This document shows, piece by piece, positions 1 to 64,000 of a stretch of 64,000 bases of DNA. The notes under the pieces were generated by a model. That model had not been told where the DNA came from. It worked only from the letters and a program-made list of their open reading frames with translations, and did no database searches. Origin of the DNA: a virus (taxonomy: Duplodnaviria; Heunggongvirae; Uroviricota; Caudoviricetes); IMG/VR virus record IMGVR_UViG_2695420859_000012; one strand, given 5' to 3'. The translations under genes and the position numbers were made by a program. The number at the start of each line of letters is the position of its first letter. Within the stretch, counting starts at the first letter, position 1.

Positions 1-2573
1 GCGTTATCTCTCTCGAACTCTGCCTGAGTAAGTTCCTGAGCAACGGCTTCCAAATGCTCCTGATAACCACGAATACTGCCTTGCAGTTTCTGGATTTGCT
101 CGGTATTGCCATCCTTTTTGGCTTTTTCAAGCTGATCATTAAGAGTCGCGATTTGCTTCTCGGTCGCATTCTTACGAGAAGAAAGTGAATCAACCAGTTT
201 TTGCGCAGGCTCCAGATAGCTTTTGTTTACCGTTTCACGTAACGGTGCCAATAGCTTGTTCTTTTCGTCATCTGAAAGTGAACCGTCATCATTGATTTTC
301 TGGATCTTATCCAGAGCCTCCTGCCGGGCTTTCACGAATGTTGCCGCGAAAATCTGGTTTTCCGCTCGAATTTTCTCAATCTGAGATTCGGCAGCCTCTT
401 TAGCCAAACGCTTTGCTACAGCGCCGTCACCAAGAGCTATCGTGCCGGTTATCTTTTGATACTCTTCCTGATTTTTTTTCAGGCGTGCTTCGATGTCAGC
501 CTTCGACTCTTTGTGAGTAATAACACCGGCAGAGTTAGATACGTAATTAACACCCTCACCAGTTTTTAATGCTCGTTGATCAGCAAGAATCTGCTTTTCG
601 AGCTTTTCTGCGCGGTCGGCCATTTGTGCACGTTTGGCCGCCGTCATCGCCTCTGGTATTTTCCTAATCTCGTCAACGACCTTTGAAGTTTCGCTGCGGA
701 GCATGGTCATGTACGTGATTAGGCCAGCAACAGCTACAGTGGCAACTGTAAATGCTGCCCCTATAGGGTTTGCTGCAATGAACGCCGTTAATCCAGCAAA
801 AGCGCCTTTAAGCCCCGTAATCGCCCCACGGATGGCGAAAATAAGAGAGGGGATCGGAGCCAGCCCCATACGTGCCGCACGATTGAATCGGGTTACTGCT
901 GTAGCGCCGAGGTTAAATGGAGTCTGTATGGCGGTCGCCATCGTGGCAAAGGTGCTAACCATCTGGCTGCCTGCGCCAACTACCCCCATGATCCCTGCTC
1001 GCATCAGTTTGAACGCAACCATCGCGGCCACGACCTTACCGAGATTAATTACCAGCTCTTGGTTCTTTGCTAACCATTGAGCAAGCTGACGCAACCCATC
1101 AATTGCCGTCGTTAACCCCGAGCCTAAAGAATTGGCAAACGAAATCCCTTCGGCGCTATTCATGATTGAAGCCAGTTCTTTCATCCCCTTCGATAGAGAA
1201 TCCAGATATCCGGCCTGACCAACCCGATCAGCAAATAACGTGAATGACGTCTGAAGTTGCGCCAGCGCACCTGTGTAGGTTTGCATCATGTCTTTCGCTG
1301 CGTTCTCATTCTCCGCACGCAGACCAACAAACATCAGAGACAACGCCTGTTTTGCCTCAACCGTACCGCTGGCAACGGCTTTAGTCAGTTCCCCCATAGT
1401 GATGCCTGCGGCGTCTGCCATTGCCTGCATCGCGTTAGGAACGGCTTCACCTAATTGCTGACGTAGCTCTTCCATTGACACAACGCCCTTACCGGACATC
1501 TGCTGAACGGCCACAGCCGCACGTTTCAACAGCTCACTATCACCACCAAAACGAGCAACGGAGTCCACCAGCGCCTTCAGAGAACCATCGGTTGGATCTA
1601 AGCCAGCAGAACGAAACTTCACGAAGGAATCTGTTAACGCCTGCATCGCGAACGGCGCATTTTGCGCCATGTCTACGATGTACTTCATATCATCAGCGGC
1701 AGCCTGGCCAGGGTTGGACTTCTCCTTATTCAACCCTCGAAGCATCACCCGCATACGTTCCATTTCGGCCGCAGCTTCAACAATAGGCTTCTGCCACCCA
1801 AACATGATGTCAGTAACCGTTCTGGCTGCATCTCCGATCTCGCCAAGCAGGAAAATGTTGCCACGAAGGCCAGAGAACATACCTCCTTCGTTACTTTTAC
1901 CGCTATGGCCAGAAGCGCCGCTACGCCGCCCGCTACCACCATCGCCACTTCCAGATGTACGAACGCGTACCGGCTTGCTAATCAGTTGCTGACGTCCGAT
2001 AACTTCGTCCATCTGCTCACGAACCTTTTTCAGTCCCTCGGCAGCCTGACTCGTTGTGACACCCCAATTACTGAGTCGCTTCGTCGTGGTATTAAGGCGC
2101 GTATTCATGCCACTCACGGACGCAGAGGCTTCTTTGACCTCCGTACCAAAGCGGCTTGCGCTTTTGCTTGCATAGGTCGCCCAATCAGAGAAATCATTTA
2201 GCTCTGATTGCACTTTACGTAATGACGCGGTGAGTTTATCTACTGAAGAAGTTGTCGTATCGACGCGCTCAATCAGGGCTTTAAGACCAGAATTGAGGCT
2301 GGTGATGTTGCCACGCATTTTACGCGTAGCATCTGAAGCAAGCTCAAAACCGGCAGCTACATCCTGTAGTTTATCTGCTGTAGAATCGAGCTTGCTTTCC
2401 AGAACGCCAATGATACGGGCGACCGAACCCAAAGAGCGTTCAAAGGTTTGGATTTTTTGAGCAGGCTTTGTTACCTGCTCACCAAATCGAGTAAGCAGTT
2501 TCCCCGCACGATCGATTGACGCTGTAAACTGTTTGTCTTCCAGCGACAGGATAAACTCTACGTTTTGTGACAT
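1..2573 (-). CDS. Tail tape measure protein (N-terminal part; 3' end lies beyond window start)
   Basis: My own reverse-strand translation from an ATG at 2571-2573 (AAGGGA RBS upstream) stays open to the window edge, beginning MSQNVEFILSLEDKQF and including a Gly/Ser-rich stretch. It sits immediately downstream of the G/G-T chaperone pair. It is absent from the ORF track because there is no in-window stop; the forward ORFs at 634-2201 are antisense to it. Confidence 0.65.
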   Translation of the reverse strand, partial: MSQNVEFILSLEDKQFTASIDRAGKLLTRFGEQVTKPAQKIQTFERSLGSVARIIGVLESKLDSTADKLQDVAAGFELASDATRKMRGNITSLNSGLKALIERVDTTTSSVDKLTASLRKVQSELNDFSDWATYASKSASRFGTEVKEASASVSGMNTRLNTTTKRLSNWGVTTSQAAEGLKKVREQMDEVIGRQQLISKPVRVRTSGSGDGGSGRRSGASGHSGKSNEGGMFSGLRGNIFLLGEIGDAARTVTDIMFGWQKPIVEAAAEMERMRVMLRGLNKEKSNPGQAAADDMKYIVDMAQNAPFAMQALTDSFVKFRSAGLDPTDGSLKALVDSVARFGGDSELLKRAAVAVQQMSGKGVVSMEELRQQLGEAVPNAMQAMADAAGITMGELTKAVASGTVEAKQALSLMFVGLRAENENAAKDMMQTYTGALAQLQTSFTLFADRVGQAGYLDSLSKGMKELASIMNSAEGISFANSLGSGLTTAIDGLRQLAQWLAKNQELVINLGKVVAAMVAFKLMRAGIMGVVGAGSQMVSTFATMATAIQTPFNLGATAVTRFNRAARMGLAPIPSLIFAIRGAITGLKGAFAGLTAFIAANPIGAAFTVATVAVAGLITYMTMLRSETSKVVDEIRKIPEAMTAAKRAQMADRAEKLEKQILADQRALKTGEGVNYVSNSAGVITHKESKADIEARLKKNQEEYQKITGTIALGDGAVAKRLAKEAAESQIEKIRAENQIFAATFVKARQEALDKIQKINDDGSLSDDEKNKLLAPLRETVNKSYLEPAQKLVDSLSSRKNATEKQIATLNDQLEKAKKDGNTEQIQKLQGSIRGYQEHLEAVAQELTQAEFERDN

Positions 2574-22167: not shown

Positions 22168-22517
22168 GATTAATTCCTTATCGTAAATAACAAATTGTTT
22201 TCTTGTTGGTGTTAATTATCGTTGTACGAATAAGGCGTCAAAGTGGAAAGTTGCGGTAGCCGGACGGGAACAGGTGGGTTTGTCGGTTGCCTGGAGGTAA
22301 GAGGTTGGTGTTATTAGCCTGAGGGAAACAGGATGGTCATTTAAGACCACCAATGCTGGTGGCCTTAATAATTATCGCCCGATTACGCTAAGGATCTTTT
22401 CCTCAACTGATTTGTTGTTGCGACTAAACTGCCTTGCGTATCTGATGACAGAAGAGGCGTTTTGCTTTCTGACCATCTCGGCTCTTTCCTTCAGGCGTTT
22501 CTTGAAATCGCCCATAT

Positions 22518-22892: not shown

Positions 22893-22983
22893 GATGGTTT
22901 CCTTATTAACTTGCTTCAGTAAAATCATTTTCACAAATCAGATAAGGCAGAAAACAAATTGTTATCGGGCTTAATAAAATGGC

Positions 22984-23842: not shown

Positions 23843-23996
23843 CACAACTCCGTAAACAACTTGTTTTCTCAATGGCGTAAATAATACCAATAAAAAAACG
23901 GCTACAAAGCATAATGATCAGGTGCATGAGCGATATGCAGGTTCTTCCCTGCGGCTACAGATTAAGTTAAGCCAGCAATGCTGGCTTTGGTTGGGA

Positions 23997-25019: not shown

Positions 25020-25620
25020 CTATTTCTGTTGGTGAATTGGGTGTGTTGTTCTCTCTGTCGGTGTATGTGGTTTCGTTCGTTTTGCGGTGGTTCTTCTATG
25101 GGGTGTTCTCGTCGTTTTGGTGATTGTTCTTCTCCGTGTATGGAGTAATGGCAGGTGGGCGATTCCTTTCGTTGTTGTGTTTGAGTTGTTTGTCTGGAGT
25201 GTGTGAAAGGCTTTTGCAGTTATTCGTGTATTGGGTAATGGCATTTCCCGTGATTGTTGTGTTTCGTGTCTTTTGGGATTGAGAGAAACCTTGCGGTTAC
25301 AGGCTTCGTTGGGGTTTCAGTGATTCTGGTGTTCTTCGCTGTTTGGGGAATGGCGTGTCGTGGGTATCGCGCGTATGAATGTTTTCGGATTGCCTGTGAA
25401 AGTTAGGTTGGTTGTCCGGTAGCCTGGGGAGAAGAGGTGGGTCTTTTCGGTAGCCTGGGGAGAAGAGGTGGGTCTTTTCGGTAGCCTGCCATAAAGAGGT
25501 TGGTTGTTTTTGGAAATGGCATTTGTGTTATTTAGTTGTTTTGTTATGCCTGAAAATAAGTTGTTTATATGGTTGTGTAACGCAACGGGAGCGATTTTGA
25601 GCGTGTGTTTTTGTTGGTAG
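25020..25620. repeat. G+T-skewed non-coding repeat region with a 32-bp tandem direct repeat (about 25418-25500)
   Basis: Forward strand strongly G/T-rich for about 600 bp; recurring GG(A/G)(G/A)(T/A)AATGGC units at about 25142, 25232, 25345 and 25511; GGTAGCCTGGGGAGAAGAGGTGGGTCTTTTC repeated about 2.3 times in tandem. Only low-complexity ORFs are present. Confidence 0.6.
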
Positions 25621-25921
25621 TGTGTTGGGTCGTCTGTGGTGAAAATTGGACGCTGTGGCGCTGTCTGCTGCGTAGAGTTACGGGTATAAGCAGTGATGTG
25701 TGAAAACGTCAATTTTTTAGACCAAATCGGGTGAAAGCGTTGATGTTTCGTTGATCTGTTATTCAGTTGTTTTCTTGATTGTATAAACAACTATAACTTA
25801 TTGATATTTAAGGATGTGATTGCGGGTATGGAAGAAGAGTAGTGGCGATCAACGGATTCTTATAGAAAAGAATCAAATTGTGACCGCCATTATCAACTGA
25901 TTGATTTGTTTACTTGTGTAG

Positions 25922-26320
25922 TCAGTTCTCGAAATGAATAGGGTCAACGTAATGCCGCTCACCGCTTTTACCATTACACAGCACTGTAACTTTCGCCTTT
26001 TCACTCCAGGCTGAGTATAGAAAGTTCCCATCAGGTTGAACATGGTAACGAGAGAAGTAAACATCGCCGACTGAGGCGTCGAACATGTTCCTATCTTTTT
26101 CACTTTGGGCAAGCGAGATGGATATCACCGAATTCCCATTTGGGGAAACGATTTTAAATTTATTCCCTATATCCATAACAATATTGTAACCAGGTAATTG
26201 CTTGTGTGTTTCCGGATCTATTTTCATGCATCGTGGGTACACGATAGTGTTAGGCTCTTCAACTGGCGTGGCATTAGCAGAAAGCACAAAAAATATTAGT
26301 GCCAATGGTGCATATTTCAT
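25922..26320 (-). CDS. Secreted protein (hypothetical, 132 aa)
   Basis: Predicted signal peptide (MKYAPLALIFFVLSANA). Confidence 0.5.
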   Translation of the reverse strand: MKYAPLALIFFVLSANATPVEEPNTIVYPRCMKIDPETHKQLPGYNIVMDIGNKFKIVSPNGNSVISISLAQSEKDRNMFDASVGDVYFSRYHVQPDGNFLYSAWSEKAKVTVLCNGKSGERHYVDPIHFEN

Positions 26321-26432
26321 TTATCCCTCACAATTTCCAATTTTCCAGACCATCGTCTATTTCAGCGTCAGGGTGGAATTGTACCGCATCAAATCCTACA
26401 TCGAGCACCTTTCGAATGTTCTTGATGGTTTG

Positions 26433-26621
26433 CTATGTGACACCGTAATCACGCAGCTTTTCTTCCCTCCCCTGACTCCCCCATACTCCGTTTCTGTACC
26501 CAATTGAGTCCGAGATTGTATGGTGCTCGAAACAGATATTTGGTAGACACTCAGAGTCATGCTGTGTAACGAGGGTAGGGCTACTAACTGTCGTCTTATA
26601 CAATTTGGTGAGTTTCAGCAT
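26433..26621 (-). CDS. Small hypothetical protein (62 aa)
   Basis: Start overlaps the stop region of the upstream gene; no other support. Confidence 0.25.
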   Translation of the reverse strand: MLKLTKLYKTTVSSPTLVTQHDSECLPNICFEHHTISDSIGYRNGVWGSQGREEKLRDYGVT

Positions 26622-26857
26622 TTTACCACCCCGTTCGGAAACAACTCATTCGCCGTAGTTGATATAACCTCCCAATTAACGCCGACATCAGCGTTATGGC
26701 ATTGTCTGATTTTTTGCATCACCTGTACGCATTGTTCATCAGTGAGATCTGTCCTTACTTCAGCAATATCTTCTTTGTGCCACATAACCATGAGTAAGGG
26801 TTCGTCTTCTGGATAGTTTTTCAGTTTCTCGATGATTTCTTTTGCTGTTCCAAACAT
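26615..26857 (-). CDS. Hypothetical protein (80 aa)
   Basis: Start placed at the second Met after a GGAG RBS; two copies of the conserved upstream element directly 5'. Confidence 0.45.
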   Translation of the reverse strand: MFGTAKEIIEKLKNYPEDEPLLMVMWHKEDIAEVRTDLTDEQCVQVMQKIRQCHNADVGVNWEVISTTANELFPNGVVKC

Positions 26858-26969
26858 CTTCATCTCCTAAACAATTTGTTTTCTTATATGACTTATTATC
26901 TCAATCAACAAAAGGTAGAAAACAAATTGTTTTAGAGTTTGTTAAAGTCAGAAGGGGTTGTGTCTATAT

Positions 26970-26995
26970 GAAAATGCCCGGCGTGTTGCCGGGCA
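26970..26995 (-). terminator. Rho-independent terminator of metG
   Basis: GCCCGGC-AACAC-GCCGGGC hairpin followed by ATTTTCAT on the reverse strand, 25-45 nt after the metG stop. Confidence 0.7.
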
Positions 26996-27016
26996 TTGCG
27001 AAGAGAGGTTGTTTAA

Positions 27017-29050
27017 TTACTTAACCTGGTGGCCAGGTTTAGCACCAGCATCCGGGCTTAACAGGAAGATATCTTTCCCGCCGGGGCCAGCAGCCATCAC
27101 CATGCCTTCAGAGATACCGAAGCGCATTTTACGTGGTGCCAGGTTAGCCACCATAATGGTGTGACGACCAATCAGTGCCTGTGGATCTGGATAAGCGGAA
27201 CGGATGCCTGAGAAGACATTACGCTTTTCACCACCGAGATCCAGCGTCAGGCGAAGCAGTTTGTCAGAACCTTCTACAAACTCTGCGTTTTCAATCAGCG
27301 CCACGCGCAGGTCAACTTTGGCGAAGTCGTCAAAGGTGATAGTTTCCTGAATCGGGTCGTCAGCCAGTGGGCCAGTTACCGGTGCGGCTGTGGCTTTCAC
27401 TTCTTCTTTGGATGCTTCCACCAGTGCTTCAACCTGCTTCATATCGATGCGGTTATACAGTGCCTTGAACGGATTCACTTTATGGCCCAGCAGCGGTTGC
27501 TGGATACCATCCCAGGTCAGTTCTGTATTCAGGAATGCTTCTGCACGTTCAGTCAGTTTCGGCAGTACCGGTTTCAGGTACGTCATCAGCACGCGGAACA
27601 GGTTAATGCCCATAGAGCAAATCGCCTGCAGATCGGCATCGCGTCCTTCCTGCTTTGCCACCACCCACGGAGCCTGTTCATCAACATAGCGGTTAGCCAG
27701 GTCAGCCAGTGCCATGATTTCACGGATAGCTTTGCCAAATTCGCGGCTTTCCCATGCTTCGCCAATCACTTCAGCGGCATCAGTAAAGGTTTTGTACAGT
27801 TGCGGGTCAGCCAGTTCGCTTGCCAGCACGCCGTCAAAACGCTTGTTGATAAAGCCTGCATTACGGGAGGCCAGGTTAACCACTTTGTTAACGATATCGG
27901 CATTCACACGCTGAACGAAATCTTCCAGGTTGAGATCGATATCATCAATGCGCGAAGAGAGTTTCGCAGTGTAGTAGTAACGCAGGCTGTCGGCGTCAAA
28001 ATGATTCAGCCAGGTGCTGGCTTTAATAAAGGTGCCGCGAGACTTGGACATCTTCGCGCCGTTCACCGTCACATAGCCGTGAACAAACAGGTTGGTCGGC
28101 TTGCGGAAGTTGCTGCCTTCCAGCATGGCAGGCCAGAACAGGCTGTGGAAGTAAACGATATCTTTGCCGATGAAGTGGTACAGCTCGGCGGTGGAGTCTT
28201 TCTTCCAGTATTCGTCGAAGCTGGTAGTGTCGCCGCGTTTGTCGCACAGATTCTTGAAGGAACCCATGTAGCCAATCGGCGCGTCCAGCCAGACGTAGAA
28301 GTATTTGCCCGGTGCGTTCGGAATTTCAAAACCGAAGTAAGGTGCGTCACGGGAGATATCCCACTGTTGCAGGCCGGATTCAAACCACTCCTGCATTTTG
28401 TTTGCCACCTGCTCCTGCAACGCACCGCTGCGGGTCCATGCCTGCAACATTTCGCTGAAAGAAGGCAGATCAAAGAAGAAGTGTTCGGAATCACGCATTA
28501 CCGGTGTAGCGCCAGAAACCACTGATTTCGGCTCGATCAGTTCCGTCGGGCTGTATGTCGCGCCGCAGACTTCACAGTTATCGCCGTATTGATCCGGCGC
28601 TTTACATTTCGGGCATGTGCCTTTTACAAAACGGTCCGGCAGGAACATGCCTTTTTCCGGGTCGTACAGCTGAGAGATGGTGCGGTTTTTAATAAAACCG
28701 TTCTCTTTCAGGCGAGTATAGATAAGCTCGGACAACTGACGGTTCTCTTCGCTGTGCGTCGAGTGATAGTTGTCATAGCTGATGTTAAAGCCTGCGAAAT
28801 CAGTCTGATGTTCCTGACTCATTTCGCCAATCATCTGTTCCGGTGTGATACCAAGCTGCTGTGCTTTCAGCATGATTGGCGTACCGTGGGCATCGTCGGC
28901 ACAGATGAAATTAACCTCGTGGCCGCGCATTCGCTGGTAACGAACCCAGACATCAGCCTGGATGTGCTCCAGCATATGGCCGAGGTGGATTGAGCCGTTA
29001 GCGTACGGCAGCGCGCACGTCACCAGAATTTTCTTCGCGACTTGGGTCAT
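27017..29050 (-). CDS. metG: Methionine--tRNA ligase (host-type, near-identical to E. coli MetG by recall)
   Basis: 677-aa protein from [29 protein letters not shown] with HLGH and KMSKS (GAKMSKSRG) class I signatures, C4 zinc knuckle and C-terminal tRNA-binding domain. The track ORF extends 43 codons further upstream to 29179. Confidence 0.95.
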
Positions 29051-29207
29051 AGTAGGCATTACTTCTTTGTAGTGAAAAGGGGCTTGATAGTAACAAAATG
29101 GCCTTATGTCTGCCATGTGATAACAGCATTTCTCATAAATGATTAAATGTCGTAGCTGGAGTACACTACAAGGCGACAATTGCGCAAATTAAAATAAAGG
29201 AGACGGG

Positions 29208-30308
29208 ATGAGCGAGTCCAAATCGCCGGATGCCCTGAGAGCAATGGTAGCCGGTACGCTGGCTAATTTTCAGCACCCAACCCTGAAACACAACCTGACT
29301 ACGCTTAAAGCGTTACACCATGTTGCGTTGATGGATGACACACTGCATGTCGAACTAATCATGCCTTTCGTGTGGAATAAGCCTTTTGAAGACCTGAAAG
29401 AGCAATGTAGTGGTGATCTGCTACGTATCACTGGCGCAAAGGCTATTGACTGGAAGCTGTCGTACAACATTGCCACGCTTAAGCGCGTCAAAAACCAACC
29501 AGGCATTAATGGCGTTAAGAACATTATCGCCGTCAGCTCAGGCAAGGGCGGCGTGGGTAAATCCTCCACGGCGGTAAACCTGGCACTGGCGTTGGCTGCT
29601 GAAGGTGCGAAAGTTGGTATTTTGGATGCCGATATCTATGGTCCATCAATTCCAACCATGCTGGGCGCGGAAAACCAACGTCCAACCTCACCGGACGGTA
29701 CTCACATGGCACCTATCATGTCTCATGGCCTGGCAACCAACTCTATTGGTTATCTGGTCACCGACGACAATGCAATGGTGTGGCGTGGACCGATGGCCAG
29801 CAAGGCGCTGATGCAGATGTTGCAGGAAACACTGTGGCCTGATCTGGACTATCTCGTTCTCGATATGCCACCGGGCACTGGTGATATTCAATTGACGCTG
29901 GCGCAGAACATTCCTGTAACTGGTGCGGTTGTGGTAACTACGCCGCAAGACATCGCGCTGATCGATGCGAAGAAAGGCATTGTGATGTTCGAAAAAGTCG
30001 AAGTGCCGGTACTGGGTATCGTTGAAAACATGAGTGTGCATATTTGCAGTAACTGCGGTCATCACGAGCCAATTTTTGGCACCGGTGGCGCACAGAAACT
30101 GGCCGAGAAATACAACACGCAGTTGTTAGGCCAAATGCCACTTCATATCTCTCTTCGTGAAGATCTGGATAACGGAACACCAACCGTTATTAGTCGTCCA
30201 GATAGTGAATTTACGGCTATTTATCGTGACCTCGCAGATCGCGTTGCTGCCCAAATGTATTGGCAAGGTGAAGTAATACCTGGCGAAATCGCATTCCGCG
30301 CAGTGTGA
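29208..30308 (+). CDS. apbC: Fe-S cluster carrier ATPase Mrp/ApbC (host-type)
   Basis: P-loop ([20 protein letters not shown]), conserved CxxC (CSNCGHHEP); divergently arranged with metG as in enterobacterial chromosomes. Confidence 0.95.
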
Positions 30309-30317
30309 TAAAAAGGT

Positions 30318-30444
30318 GGTGCTTTTGCCGTTACGCACCACCCCGTCAGTAGCTGAACAGGAGGGACAGCTGATAGAAACAGAAGCCACTGGAGCACCTC
30401 AAAAACACCATCATACACTAAATCAGTAAGTTGGCAGCATCACC
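30318..30444 (-). mobile_element. insA: IS1 left-end remnant (terminal inverted repeat plus first 24 codons of insA), truncated internally
   Basis: Track ORF 30126-30389 (-) begins [24 protein letters not shown], the InsA N-terminus, then reads antisense mrp. Upstream of it lies the IS1 terminal repeat GGTGATGCTGCCAACTTACTGAT (reverse-complemented on the forward strand, ending at about 30442-30444). Confidence 0.8.
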
Positions 30445-30606
30445 GAGCGCCAGCGGCGAACATATGAGCTTCGGAAATACTAGACATTCTTAACTCCGTT
30501 GTTTTCTAGTTGTGGTTATTTTCACAAATAAGAAAAGATAGAAAACAATTTATTTAAGGCCACAACTTATGGCCTTTATTTATTCATGCCGAAGGATTTG
30601 TAGCGT

Positions 30607-30987
30607 CTAATTGCCGGATAAAATGGGGTGAGGTGCTTGCCAGTAGGCTCCACCGTTCCATGTGAACCCCATGCGAATAAGAGTGTTTATTGCGGCTTTG
30701 GTAGACTCCGATTCGACACTGGCTTTACGAAACTCTTGAACCTCTTTCGCCAACTTGTATGTAATTGTGCAGGGGACGATTGCAGCCCAGCCTTTCTCAT
30801 GACTGTTAATGACCATCTGGATGTGACCATCCAGAATAGGTTGATTAGGCATGTTATTGAAAATGTCTGCCTGTTTTTGAATGTGAAGAAAAAGCCTTGC
30901 CAGCGCCATTTGCTCACTACGAGACAAGGGATTATCAAGAGGGCTTTTTGCAAAAGCTGCTATACGCTGTGCATCAATGCCAAACAT
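30607..30987 (-). CDS. Hypothetical protein (126 aa)
   Basis: ORF translationally coupled to the upstream gene; hairpin downstream. Confidence 0.45.
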   Translation of the reverse strand: MFGIDAQRIAAFAKSPLDNPLSRSEQMALARLFLHIQKQADIFNNMPNQPILDGHIQMVINSHEKGWAAIVPCTITYKLAKEVQEFRKASVESESTKAAINTLIRMGFTWNGGAYWQAPHPILSGN

Positions 30988-33438: not shown

Positions 33439-33579
33439 AATTACACCATTAAATAATTTGTTTTCTGATTGGTGTAATTATCGCAAACTTGAAAAGGCAT
33501 AAAAGCTGCATTCATAGGCGTTACAGCAGATTTAAGGCGTAAAAATGGGGGCTGTCGCCCCCTGTCGACTGGTGCTGTA

Positions 33580-34146: not shown

Positions 34147-34285
34147 GTGTTTTTCCTAATGCTTAAACAAGTTGTTTTCTTATTGTCTTTATTGTGATGT
34201 GGCATAAAAGGGGAGCAAGCTAAACGTAAAGGTGCAAACTCTCTATTTCGGTCAACGAAACACAAGGGCCATTTGGCCCTTGTCA

Positions 34286-34869: not shown

Positions 34870-34962
34870 GTGCTTTCCTTTTATTATTTGTCAAAACAAG
34901 TTGTTTTCTAATTACATAAATTGCTTACGCAGAGATGGTCAATGCATATGCACTAACAGCCG

Positions 34963-59965: not shown

Positions 59966-61129
59966 TTAATCAAAATTCTTCTGTTTCATTGCCTCAGCCG
60001 CTTTTTGCAGCGGTCCTTTTAAGGCTTTTTCTAACTTTGTCATCTGCTCTAAGTGCCACGCAACCGCTTGGGGCCAAGTCTCTTTGTTAAACCCGTCAGC
60101 TTTGGTCGAAAACTGGATACGGCAAGATTTCTTCTCATCCAGCCTCATCCACTCAAGTTCTGCACCAAAAGTATGCTCAATGTCTTGTTTGGACTGACTC
60201 AACAAATCAAAAAGGTATTTATTCTCTTCGGTAACCCCACGGCTGATCCAAAGCTCTACTCGAAGCTCTTTTTGCAGAAATATCAGGTTATACGGACATC
60301 CACTTAGCCCTGAGCCTGCTGATAACCAATGATCTTTGCTTGGGCTAATGTTGTTATAGAGTTGGCAAGAGCTTTTCTGAAACGCCTCTAAGGCACGCTC
60401 CCAGTACTCGCGACGCACGGTATGGCGGTTTTTTAGTACCACTTCGGTGGTTTTTTCTTCCGCTTCCTTGGCATTAATGCCGATCATCAACTCTTTCGCT
60501 TCTGGCGTTGGAATGATCTGGTCAATATTAATCAGTAGCTGTTCACCCAGTGAATAAGGCGTGATTTTGAAGCAGGCAATGCTAATGCCTTGACCCAATA
60601 ACCACAGCGCGGTGCTGGTCACTTCTTTGCGAAAGTTTGCCGCAACTAACATAATGCGCTGGCTGTTACCCAGGTTGAGCTTTAACTCATCGAGATCGGG
60701 CGCATCCAAAAACTCACATATTCTAGCAGAGGCACTTGCAGGGGTATTAAACAAGTCAACCTCTCCTGTTACAGGCTCATAGCGGTCTAAGTACTGCTGG
60801 TAAATTTCAACGATTTGCGCTTTGGTTAAACTTGCGCAGTAGGAGGCATATTTAAGCGCCTGCCACACCACATCGCGGCCACTGTCGTCCAGCTTGTTTT
60901 CAATAATGACCAAGTTGCCATCTTTATCCAGTGCCAGTAAATCTAAGCGTTCACGGGTGTCATCAAAGCCATCGAACTCTTTTTGAATAATCAGCAGCTC
61001 TTCACCCAGTGCGGAAGGCTCGTGTGCCAACCATTCCTGAAGATTTTTGCGCTCAGTAAAGCCCAACTCACTGAATCTCTTCGTCTTAACCGGACTAATC
61101 CTGTTGGTCTGATGATTTACCGTGAACAT
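59966..61129 (-). CDS. NucS-like / DUF4268-type protein inserted in the type I R-M operon
   Basis: N-terminal region resembles PD-(D/E)xK NucS-type nucleases (ERLDLLALDKDGNLVIIENKLD...VWQALKYASY); located between hsdS and hsdR. Confidence 0.45.
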   Translation of the reverse strand: MFTVNHQTNRISPVKTKRFSELGFTERKNLQEWLAHEPSALGEELLIIQKEFDGFDDTRERLDLLALDKDGNLVIIENKLDDSGRDVVWQALKYASYCASLTKAQIVEIYQQYLDRYEPVTGEVDLFNTPASASARICEFLDAPDLDELKLNLGNSQRIMLVAANFRKEVTSTALWLLGQGISIACFKITPYSLGEQLLINIDQIIPTPEAKELMIGINAKEAEEKTTEVVLKNRHTVRREYWERALEAFQKSSCQLYNNISPSKDHWLSAGSGLSGCPYNLIFLQKELRVELWISRGVTEENKYLFDLLSQSKQDIEHTFGAELEWMRLDEKKSCRIQFSTKADGFNKETWPQAVAWHLEQMTKLEKALKGPLQKAAEAMKQKNFD

Positions 61130-61138
61130 ATTCGCTTC

Positions 61139-62470
61139 CTATTGCTCAACCATTTCTGGGGTGATCTTGATTTTTCCTGTCACGGCGCTGTTGATCAGGG
61201 TGGTTTTATATTCTTTAAGCTTTTCGATTTGTATTTTTTGATACTCTATAGCTCGCTCAACATCACCATTTAATCTGTTAATGTACGTAATAATTCCATC
61301 TCGTTCATTTTTAGAAGGGGGGAAAGGCACAAAAATGCTATTAAGATTCCCCACTGTAAGCTGATTAATTGTTGATGTAAGAAATGTCCCTGATAACATT
61401 TTGAAAACATCACTATTTAGAATGCAAAATAAATACTCATTGTGTTTAGATCTGAATACCGTAGTAAAGGCCCCGAAGCTGTTTCCCTCATCAGCGTCAG
61501 ATACAAATGCACACTTGCCAATTAGGTCTCGACTTCCATTCCTGGAGCATATCAAAATATCACCTTTTTTAAGCTTTAAGTGCTCAGGAATAAAGCAATT
61601 GACATAAACATTTTCCTTTTCACCATACTTAAACTTCCCTTCGTATAAGTTTGATGATCGCGCAACTAGAGTTCCGCCTTTTTCATCACTTAAATCATTT
61701 GGCGAATAAGTTAACCCAATGATCGATTTACCAAGATATTTTAACCTCTTAACGTCCCAATGCGCTGGAATCTTACCAATCCAATCCACACCGGAGTCTT
61801 TCATTGGCACATTGGGATCAAGCCCTTGGGTCACCGCCTGTTGGATGATGATCTGCTTACGCTCTTTCAGCAGGCTAATTTGCTGCTCTTTGATCGAAAT
61901 CGCTTCGTCGATTAGAGCGGTTTTCTTGTCGAGAAAATTTGCAATTAGGGACTGCTCTTCTTCTGAAGGCAGGACAAAAGGAATCACCTTCATCCGTGCT
62001 TTTGAAAGGTCCCACTGACCAATCCTTACACCATCTGATGCACTACCAAAAAACGATACATATAACTTACTGCGTATCGCCCAATTGAAAAACTCAGGAT
62101 TTATTGCCTTTGTAAAATCAAAAATAAAATACGCAGGACTTACAATTCCAGTGAACTTTGATACACCGTAAGAACCCTGCCACGCTTTCATTTTATTCAT
62201 TCCAAATTGACCTTTCTCAAGCTTTTTATAGCCGCTAAGATCATCTGGTATAAAATTGTGATTTGACTCTTGATTATCCACGTCTCTCTCGATAACACCT
62301 TGTTCGCGTGTTATCGAAAGTAGTGGCAATTCAGGGCAGTTTTTGACCGACACCGGAGATAGGCACGAGCCTAACTTAACCAAGTCCCAATGCTCTGGAA
62401 TCTCGCCAATCCACTCATAACCAGAGTCACTATATTGATCATACTTTAGCGTTGAGGTAATGCTTTCCAT
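61139..62470 (-). CDS. hsdS: Type I restriction-modification specificity subunit
   Basis: 443 aa with two target-recognition-domain halves, each introduced by an IP(E/A)HWD-type motif (GEIPEHWDLVKL and GKIPAHWDVKRL); start overlaps the hsdM stop. Confidence 0.8.
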   Translation of the reverse strand: MESITSTLKYDQYSDSGYEWIGEIPEHWDLVKLGSCLSPVSVKNCPELPLLSITREQGVIERDVDNQESNHNFIPDDLSGYKKLEKGQFGMNKMKAWQGSYGVSKFTGIVSPAYFIFDFTKAINPEFFNWAIRSKLYVSFFGSASDGVRIGQWDLSKARMKVIPFVLPSEEEQSLIANFLDKKTALIDEAISIKEQQISLLKERKQIIIQQAVTQGLDPNVPMKDSGVDWIGKIPAHWDVKRLKYLGKSIIGLTYSPNDLSDEKGGTLVARSSNLYEGKFKYGEKENVYVNCFIPEHLKLKKGDILICSRNGSRDLIGKCAFVSDADEGNSFGAFTTVFRSKHNEYLFCILNSDVFKMLSGTFLTSTINQLTVGNLNSIFVPFPPSKNERDGIITYINRLNGDVERAIEYQKIQIEKLKEYKTTLINSAVTGKIKITPEMVEQ

Positions 62471-64000
62471 TAGGCTTCTCCCTGAACTTCCGCCACTTTC
62501 ACGCCTAATATTTGTGCAATCAAACCATCAGCCTTCTGCTCTAGATTGATAATGTCAGTTGCTACTTCTTCAAGACTACGTAATGGCTTATGCAGATAGA
62601 AATACTTATTGAAGCTGATTTCATAGCCAATTTTTACCGTATCTAGGTTTATCCATGCTTCATCGACATGAGGCTTCACTTCATCTAGGAAGTACTGGTA
62701 AATGCTTTGCTTTAATGGAACAGATTCTGTATCTCGCAGGTCTGAATTGGTCTCGTAAGTGATATACTCGCCTTTTTTACCGCCTTCTGCTGAAGGAACG
62801 GGGTAATAACCAAAATCTGGCAAGTCAGCGACTTCACACTCATAGCGCTCCAGCAGGTCGTTTAATTTATCACCCGTTAATTTAACTACCTTTTTAACCA
62901 CTTTCTTGGCGGTTTCGTCATACCAGCTCACCGCGTGAAGAATGGCATTTTTCTCAGGTGCTGAAAGCTTAATAGCATGGGCTTTTAGCGATTTATCAAC
63001 TTGGGTTTTAAAGCTATTGAAGTCATCAAATTCAATGCTACCGATGTCAGCCATCAGCGTTTGTGCAGTTTCAAGCAATGCTTTTAGCGCCAGCCAGTGT
63101 TTCACATCAAGCAGTTTGGCCTTAGCCTTAGCATTGAGACTGATGTCGTTATCTTCACACCAAGAAAGAATGTCTTTCTCGATGGATTTTAAGAAGCTCT
63201 TTTTCTGATCTGACCCGTAGCCAGTTTTTTCGTAAACACGTTCGCCGTGCTCTGCGTACACGTACTCCATCACTTCACTAAGTTGCTTATCAAAACGCAG
63301 TGGGGCTATGGCATCTTGAGTAAACTTGGCTTTGCGGCGATCTGGGCGCTCGATAGTGACTTTGTAGTAGCCAAAATCGTCATTGCTGAATACCTTACTG
63401 GCGATGCCAACAGGATCATTGTTTGCATCCAGTGCTCTTTCAACATCCTTACACGCGAGGTAAGTATCGGTAATTTCCGTGATGTGCTCAGGCGCAAATT
63501 CGCAGTTTTTGTTACCTAAGTTCTTGCGCAACTTACGGTAGAGCAAGCTGGCATCAATTAATTGCACCTTACCTTTACGCGCCTCAGGTTTATTGTTGCT
63601 CAACACCCAAATGTAAGTGGTAATGCCAGTGTTATAGAACAGGTTATTAGGTAACTGAACGATGGCATCTAGCATGTCGTTTTCAATGATGAAGCGACGA
63701 ATATTACTTTCACCACCGCCCGCATCTCCGGTAAAGAGCGATGAGCCGTTATGAACAGAGGCAATCCGGCTGCCTAATGGACTTACGCTCGGATCTTTCA
63801 TCTTGTTGACCATCTCCATTAAGAAAAGCAGCTGGCCATCACTCGAACGTGGCGTGGCATCCACCACTTCGAGATTTCCCCAATAGTCTTTCAGGCTAAC
63901 CTTAAAACGCGGGTCAATCACATCACTGCCGTCTTTAATGTACTTCTGTTCAGACGCCCAACTCTTACCGTATGGCGGGTTAGACAACATAAAGTCAAAG
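62470..64000 (-). CDS. hsdM: Type I restriction-modification methyltransferase subunit (5' end beyond window)
   Basis: Frame is open to the window edge; NPPYG motif IV sits at the in-window N-terminus, so motifs X and I must lie upstream of 64000. Confidence 0.85.
   Translation of the reverse strand, partial: FDFMLSNPPYGKSWASEQKYIKDGSDVIDPRFKVSLKDYWGNLEVVDATPRSSDGQLLFLMEMVNKMKDPSVSPLGSRIASVHNGSSLFTGDAGGGESNIRRFIIENDMLDAIVQLPNNLFYNTGITTYIWVLSNNKPEARKGKVQLIDASLLYRKLRKNLGNKNCEFAPEHITEITDTYLACKDVERALDANNDPVGIASKVFSNDDFGYYKVTIERPDRRKAKFTQDAIAPLRFDKQLSEVMEYVYAEHGERVYEKTGYGSDQKKSFLKSIEKDILSWCEDNDISLNAKAKAKLLDVKHWLALKALLETAQTLMADIGSIEFDDFNSFKTQVDKSLKAHAIKLSAPEKNAILHAVSWYDETAKKVVKKVVKLTGDKLNDLLERYECEVADLPDFGYYPVPSAEGGKKGEYITYETNSDLRDTESVPLKQSIYQYFLDEVKPHVDEAWINLDTVKIGYEISFNKYFYLHKPLRSLEEVATDIINLEQKADGLIAQILGVKVAEVQGEA

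Follow-up and report, generated by a model that had tools for sequence, protein, structure and literature searches.

The insertion sequence IS1 generates direct target-site duplications of about 9 bp and causes adjacent deletions as well as cointegrates. In adjacent deletions of the type described by Reif and Saedler, the insertion sequence stays intact and the new joint is located at its terminus. Spontaneous deletions in lacI are said to have been traced by Albertini and coworkers in 1982 to pairs of short direct repeats. The elements SSU5, pECOH89 and Cyrano (pLF82) have been described as phage-plasmids of Enterobacteriaceae (PMC3999498, PMC9928086, PMC7969092). In the present study, a stretch of 64 kb of viral DNA (referred to as the window in the following, at its full length) was analyzed with a focus on positions 30309 to 30606, where a fragment of IS1 lies between the gene pair metG-apbC (apbC being the gene also known as mrp) and genes of phage type. 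The locus was compared with complete IS1, with relatives of the source element that carry no IS1 at this place, and with the types of deletion mentioned above.

Results

The window is best taken to derive from an SSU5/pECOH89-type phage-plasmid of E. coli, with which it shares both synteny and high nucleotide identity (SSU5, pECOH89 and Cyrano). Around the site under study it is 97-100% identical to those E. coli elements: the flanking region matches the E. coli plasmids pM160133_p3 (NZ_CP022167.1) and NZ_CP015915.1 at 100% identity, and the same neighbourhood matches phage Cyrano (pLF82) and many other non-mobilizable E. coli plasmids of about 110 kb at 97-98% identity. The gene order is shared as well, metG-apbC being followed by a variable region of ea-type accessory genes and by a DUF4942 gene. 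In contrast to these elements, the lineage of the window is devoid of the HumD-like gene, of about eight small accessory genes and of the HD_4 gene, and carries an IS1 scar instead. The features of the locus are compiled in Table 1.

Table 1. Features at and around the IS1 scar, ordered by position in the window.
Feature	Position	Strand	Basis and remarks
metG (methionine--tRNA ligase)	27017-29050	-	RefSeq annotation of the identical plasmid; left half of the metG-apbC block
apbC (mrp) CDS	29208-30308 (stop TGA 30306-30308)	+	ORF list, annotation
Chimeric 87-aa ORF	30126-30389	-	ORF list, translation; insA codons 1-24 read on, antisense, into the apbC 3′ end
Rebuilt hairpin	30310-30344	-	Arms from IS1 (GGGGTGGTGC, 30344-30335) and from the plasmid (GCACCACCTT, 30322-30313); 12-nt loop
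Deletion junction	30315-30322	.	Three-way alignment (window, relatives, IS1); GGTGGTGC remains as one copy of the 8-bp near-repeat GG(C/T)GGTGC
First 24 codons of insA	30389 (GTG start) to 30318	-	Translation
Promoter-like site CTGCCA-16-TATGAT in IRL	30437-30410	-	Consensus scan; directed towards the apbC 3′ end
IS1 left terminal inverted repeat GGTGATGCTGCCAACTTACTGAT (23 bp)	30422-30444	-	Identical to IRL; terminal inverted repeat annotated in the P1 IS1 copy
Truncated ORF MSSISEAHMFAAGAR, then stop	30440-30487 (ATG 30487-30485)	-	Translation
GGAG ribosome-binding site of the truncated HD gene	30497-30494	-	Sequence
Copy of the 16-bp motif AGAAAACAAWTTRTTT	30540-30555	+	Upstream of the truncated HD gene, in the gap to the Eaa-like gene
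Intact upstream neighbour	30607-30987	-	phrog_10451, named 'Eaa-like' in the record of Cyrano; final intact gene of the minus-strand operon ahead of the scar

Over the full window, pM160133_p3 is 99.9% identical, with the exception of a 1.3-kb insertion of the IS3 family and a short hsdS segment. The IS3-family insertion (60548-61857 of the plasmid record) corresponds to window positions 1738-1740, at which the window carries no insertion, and falls in the gap in which one would look for the tail tape-measure gene. The only segment that does not align to pM160133_p3 comprises about 575 bp (61934-62509) and is followed by 1.5 kb of 98.3% identity. Because this segment falls in the gene for the specificity (S) subunit of the type I restriction-modification system of the plasmid, an exchanged target-recognition domain is suggested. 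Furthermore, a tandem repeat with a unit of 31 bp (CGGTAGCCTGGGGAGAAGAGGTGGGTCTTTT; 2.3 perfect copies, 2.8 copies at 89% match) is located at 25417-25504, in a stretch of about 800 bp to which no gene is annotated in the identical plasmid.

Directly downstream of apbC, positions 30318-30444 of the minus strand are identical in 127 of 127 bases to nt 1-127 of IS1 (numbering from the IRL end, IS1 copy of phage P1 as reference); extended to 30315, the match amounts to 129/130 (E = 2e-66). The remnant starts 7-10 bp past the apbC stop codon. Its outer end, bearing the left terminal inverted repeat, is the exact terminus of IS1, and its inner breakpoint falls at IS1 nt 127-130. The initial annotation had described about 127 bp of a reversed IS1 end with 24 insA codons after the mrp stop and had regarded most of IS1 as deleted, and both statements hold. 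Over nt 1-127 the remnant is 100% identical to IS1 of the IS1A/IS1R type (phage P1, plasmid R100), with the terminal repeat, the promoter region of insA and its first 24 codons, but it amounts to only 17% of the element; insB, the frameshift site and the right inverted repeat are absent. IS1 nt 128-768, and with them insB and the programmed -1 frameshift required for the InsAB′ transposase, are missing from the window and from pM160133_p3. No second IS1 match that could supply the right terminal inverted repeat was found in the 64-kb window or in the whole of pM160133_p3, the remnant being the unique IS1 sequence in both. The promoter-like site in the IRL presumably corresponds to the insA promoter of IS1. 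Since the retained part of insA encodes the first CxxC of the zinc finger and no HTH, InsA′ would surely be inactive, and the remnant is probably a dead end-fragment unable to transpose; the chimeric 87-aa ORF is most likely a meaningless by-product. RefSeq labels 30315-30389 as 'IS1 family transposase, incomplete, missing C-terminus', and the fragment is an ordinary scar, already annotated as a partial IS1 transposase, and not a novel element.

The outer junction marks the insertion site. The joint bears the mark of a genuine transposition, because the IS1 identity ends exactly at the IS1 terminus and this terminus is joined to nt 43 of an HD gene without any additional or missing base. The intact counterpart is a 642-bp gene of pECOH89 and p4_0.2, of which window position 30445 is nt 43; from 30445 outward the window is 100% identical to its 5′ end. 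The gene is also intact in about 40 other complete plasmids. When 30445-30640 was used as query against PLSDB, 60 plasmids were matched with a coverage of at least 80%, and the query 30445-30520 matched 49 plasmids of complete genomes, with the annotation 'HD domain-containing protein' in most among the matches listed. The reverse ORF with ribosome-binding site and start codon that had been noted initially is indeed the beginning of a phage gene interrupted by IS1. The proposed length of about 15 codons agrees with the reading MSSISEAHMFAAGAR followed by TGA, but the phage-plasmid DNA contributes only 43 nt (14 codons and 1 nt, 30487-30445); 5 nt of IS1 follow, and codon 15 and the TGA stop come from the IS1 inverted repeat. 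With one IS1 end surviving, the predicted duplicated target is the 9-mer GAGCGCCAG (30445-30453).

The intact product of 213 aa matches Pfam HD_4 (PF13328) with 67.8 bits against a cutoff of 27.2 (residues 8-135, determined for the pECOH89 homologue) and phrog_990, 'metal-dependent phosphohydrolase'. Its PDB matches are Rel/SpoT, Mesh1 and small alarmone hydrolase domains with E values from 1e-13 to 1e-5, those to Rel/SpoT/Mesh1 ranging from 1e-13 to 1e-9. The interrupted accessory gene would therefore encode a phosphohydrolase resembling RelA/SpoT/Mesh1. Only residues 1-14 are left in the window, so no HD_4 domain is encoded there. Homology to Cyrano, pDETEC87, pMTY12368 and pYUYZPE244-1 resumes only at 30513, and these four relatives therefore carry a different module at this position. 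The 'Eae-like' gene of 552 bp in Cyrano was considered as the intact version and rejected as belonging to a separate module, given the same position at which homology to Cyrano resumes. BLAST extensions of 20-35 bp past the IS1 end (near wcaD and in IS1B plasmid copies) proved to be gapped chance extensions upon direct alignment.

Two further sequence features were observed in the vicinity of the truncated gene. The partly palindromic 16-bp motif AGAAAACAAWTTRTTT is present in nine copies in the window with at most one mismatch, compared to 0.02 expected: in addition to the copy in Table 1, it occurs at 22188-22203, 22949-22964, 23854-23869, 26869-26884, 26917-26932, 33451-33466, 34165-34180 and 34894-34909. 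Every copy is located within 22-35 kb, the three copies that were placed against genes are intergenic, and two of these three lie directly upstream of starts of minus-strand genes (26863 and 33438). The motif is a candidate operator or promoter element of accessory or early operons of the phage-plasmid. The spacer separating the truncated HD gene from the Eaa-like gene also contains a GC-rich hairpin (AAGGCCACAACTTATGGCCTT, 30556-30576); with a T-rich tail behind it, it is oriented along the plus strand, against the direction of the surrounding minus-strand genes.

At the inner junction, the ancestral sequence can be read from the relatives. In every relative examined, the apbC stop codon is followed by AAAAAGG(C/T)GGTGCA(A/T)TGCACC(G/A)CCTAA, a hairpin with a 9-bp stem and a 3-nt loop, with TTTTTAT following on the minus strand. 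This ancestral hairpin is the terminator-like end of the convergent minus-strand operon. The homology of the relatives extends to 30322 and the identity to IS1 begins at 30315/30318; therefore, the two parental sequences overlap in the near-repeat GG(C/T)GGTGC, which is present both at IS1 nt 123-130 and in the left arm of the hairpin 3′ of apbC. The two copies match at 7 of 8 positions, and the overlap that is exact in both parents is GGTGC (30318-30322). In the plus-strand orientation of the window, IS1 nt 123-130 read …CCGGCGGTGCTTTTGCC… and the window reads AAAAAGGTGGTGCTTTTGCC. At 30317 the window has the T of the pECOH89 type; this variant is shared by at least 16 complete plasmids with 100% identity over a probe of 81 bp. 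The shared endpoint sequence is kept in a single copy. IS1 happens to contain GGGGTGGTGC at a distance of 12 nt upstream of the joint, and for this reason the minus strand refolds into a hairpin before the original T-run (TTTTT, 30314-30310). RNA folding of the rebuilt hairpin yielded a 10-bp stem and -22.5 kcal/mol in a context of 65 nt (z = -2.9). It is plausible that this structure confers some termination of the minus-strand operon, and of any transcript from the IRL promoter, before apbC is reached, and that it would be weaker than its ancestor.

The DNA between the two endpoints is 5,595 bp long in all four of the plasmids combining the T variant with the HD gene (pECOH89, NZ_CP027358.1, NZ_CP124493.1 and NZ_CP145681.1), and 6,227 bp long in p4_0.2. 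Together with IS1 nt 128-768, this interval is lost from the window. It comprises the gene of an S24 peptidase of 129 aa (annotation: HumD family/UmuD-like), about eight short phage ORFs (encoding a ClpX-type zinc-finger protein, ea22-like proteins and PHROGs of unknown function) and the other 599 bp of the HD gene. No match to the pECOH89 segment 1406-7000 (coordinates of locus L009) or to IS1 nt 128-768 was found elsewhere in pM160133_p3; therefore, this DNA was deleted, and an inversion or translocation was rejected for this near-identical complete plasmid. The region from apbC to the Eaa-like gene, corresponding to window positions 30309-30606, is highly mosaic among the six relatives compared. 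Its length ranges from about 0.6 to about 6.3 kb, and its gene sets differ (ea22/ead-like, DUF551, pol III theta, ClpX zinc-finger and HD genes). In Cyrano the interval measures about 3.9 kb and contains other genes, and in pYUYZPE244-1 it measures about 0.6 kb, with the S24 (HumD-like) gene as the sole annotated gene. Owing to this mosaicism, the deleted accessory interval would evidently be dispensable.

On the other side of the scar, metG and apbC are divergent, in the same arrangement as on the chromosome of E. coli, to which the block is about 88% identical over exactly 27016-30304, the similarity being bounded by the stop codons of metG and apbC. The same block is contained in relatives lacking IS1 at this place (Cyrano, pECOH89, pDETEC87, pMTY12368 and others), with shared flanks, a DUF1380-family gene on the left and the terminator hairpin on the right. 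Of 5,426 complete E. coli genomes, 197 contain the junction of apbC, hairpin and HumD gene, nearly always on a plasmid. In a comparison at megablast sensitivity, SSU5 itself gave no match to the block. A full-text search of the SSU5 literature retrieved no paper on metG or methionyl-tRNA synthetase, and the Cyrano paper does not mention metG or MetRS. The other IS1 end or a second breakpoint, which the initial annotation had proposed to look for near 26940-26965, was found neither in the window nor in the comparison of 25500-27300, which aligns with the relatives end to end, so that there is no plasmid-specific breakpoint. From these comparisons, metG-apbC appears as an old, diverged and long-resident block of the phage-plasmid family, to which the designation as host DNA does not apply, and not as freshly captured E. 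coli DNA.

Eight complete genomes of E. coli isolated from human, pig, chicken and giant panda share an identical junction of 201 bp. The same junction was found in seven PLSDB plasmids, one of them additional to the eight complete genomes, as well as in one metagenome contig and one IMG/VR contig. Some of the carriers differ elsewhere in the 7-kb neighbourhood (86% coverage). Since the breakpoints are identical in the carriers, these data argue for a scar that would have arisen in a single event and has since spread.

Discussion

The locus is explained best, with a probability that we put at about 0.85, by an insertion of IS1 into the HD_4 gene and a subsequent short-homology deletion reaching to the apbC hairpin. 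The base-level junctions, the parental arrangement preserved intact in relatives and the absence of the missing DNA from the near-identical plasmid are the observations underlying this reading. In the first step, IS1 would have transposed into the 5′ end of the gene for the 213-aa HD_4 protein, after nt 43, with the IRL facing the start of the gene and insA co-oriented with the HD gene. In the second step, a RecA-independent short-homology (illegitimate) deletion would have joined GGCGGTGC in insA (IS1 nt 123-130) to the near-identical GGTGGTGC, which forms the left arm of the terminator hairpin just past the apbC stop. Lost in this step would have been IS1 nt 128-768, the second copy of the duplicated target and an accessory stretch of 5,595 bp spanning the HumD/UmuD-like S24 gene, the small ea-type genes and 599 bp of the HD gene. 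With regard to the enzymology, replication slippage or template switching at the hairpin would be conceivable. The order of the events, the deletion in one step and its enzymology are what we infer from these sequences.

Full-length IS1 in the HD gene was not found in complete E. coli genomes, PLSDB, IMG/VR, JGI metagenomes or GTDB representative genomes; it is for this reason that step one as a separate stage is reconstructed from its product. Searches of the same five collections for the right junction, in which GGCAGCATCACC is joined to GAGCGCCAGCGG and a full-length copy would continue into IS1 nt 128 onward (…GGCAAAAGCACCGCCGGACATC), returned either the truncated form or nothing, and the predicted left junction of …CCACCATGAGCGCCAG with GGTAATGACTCC gave nothing in IMG/VR and in the GTDB representative genomes. 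A point against the two-step reading is the shortness of the homology, 5 bp exact (7/8), for a deletion of about 6.2 kb. As in deletions of the lacI type, a short sequence common to the two parental endpoints is left once in the product, and the palindrome at one endpoint of the scar can form a hairpin, a classical context of slippage. The scar differs from them in its imperfect repeat (7/8, 5 exact), in that one copy belongs to a mobile element, and in its span of about 6.2 kb. With deletions of the Reif and Saedler type it shares the loss of DNA adjoining an IS1 insertion, but instead of an intact IS with its terminus at the novel joint, the joint lies at IS1 nt 127-130 and the IS is destroyed.

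This position of the joint bears on the mode of recombination. The remnant sits between a chromosome-like block and phage-type genes, and IS1 is generally known for adjacent deletions and cointegrates, so that a cointegrate, an adjacent deletion or an inversion mediated by IS1 could be thought to have put metG-apbC beside the phage gene, with most of IS1 lost afterwards. The initial annotation had favoured such an origin. However, transposase-mediated deletions keep the IS whole, and here the joint is internal to IS1 at a short homology of which one copy is retained, which is why recombination at short homology and not the transposase is considered responsible. Moreover, metG-apbC is present with identical flanks in relatives that are free of IS1 at this place, and it occurs in about 197 complete E. 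coli genomes; its identity of about 88% to the chromosome indicates an old block, and its left border shows no plasmid-specific breakpoint. As the block is only about 88% identical to the chromosome and exists without IS1, it was not brought in by IS1, and a rearrangement of this kind is very improbable. The role of metG-apbC in the event is that its downstream hairpin gave one deletion endpoint, nothing more. Taken together, the initial observation was confirmed with coordinates off by a few bases, and of its interpretation the insertion into a phage-plasmid gene stands, whereas the capture of metG-mrp and the transposase route find no support.

A course of events in several steps, in which IS1 in the HD gene gave rise to an adjacent deletion on the IRR side of part or all of the 5.6 kb and IS1 nt 128-768 were deleted later up to the apbC hairpin, would fit the general frequency of IS1 adjacent deletions. 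The accessory interval varies greatly, from 0.6 to 6.2 kb, among relatives, and the loss in the final step could therefore have been smaller than 5.6 kb. Such a course is nevertheless unlikely: it requires more events than one short-homology deletion, the left endpoint exactly on the 8-bp homology beside apbC is directly explained by a single step, and its intermediates were not found in complete E. coli genomes, PLSDB, IMG/VR, JGI metagenomes or GTDB representatives. IS1 occurs in very many copies in E. coli (72,777 places), and assemblers can be misled by repeats; even so, the probability that the 127-bp piece is a repeat misassembly or a chance similarity is practically negligible in view of the match of 127/127 bases (E = 2e-66) and of the identical 201-bp junction in eight independent complete genomes and in a further plasmid and contigs.

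The deletion favoured here might also have been of adaptive value and not neutral. Without the SpoT-like alarmone hydrolase and the HumD-like gene, the interaction of this phage-plasmid lineage with stress signalling or defence of the host could be altered; moreover, the surviving IRL promoter is now directed antisense into apbC, behind a rebuilt but weaker terminator. Either effect, if true, could contribute to the occurrence of this scar in plasmids of human, pig, chicken and giant panda origin; an adaptive value of the deletion is, however, very unlikely.

Conclusions

The scar represents a clean, base-resolved case in which an insertion sequence and a later short-homology deletion would have trimmed the accessory region of a phage-plasmid, and it may serve as a convenient lineage marker for one sub-clade of the SSU5/pECOH89-like elements of E. 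coli. Beyond such bookkeeping, it matters little. The idea that IS1 captured metG-apbC is corrected, as the block is older and stable across the family. The perhaps more interesting question is why a phage-plasmid keeps a second, 88%-diverged methionyl-tRNA synthetase together with an Fe-S carrier.
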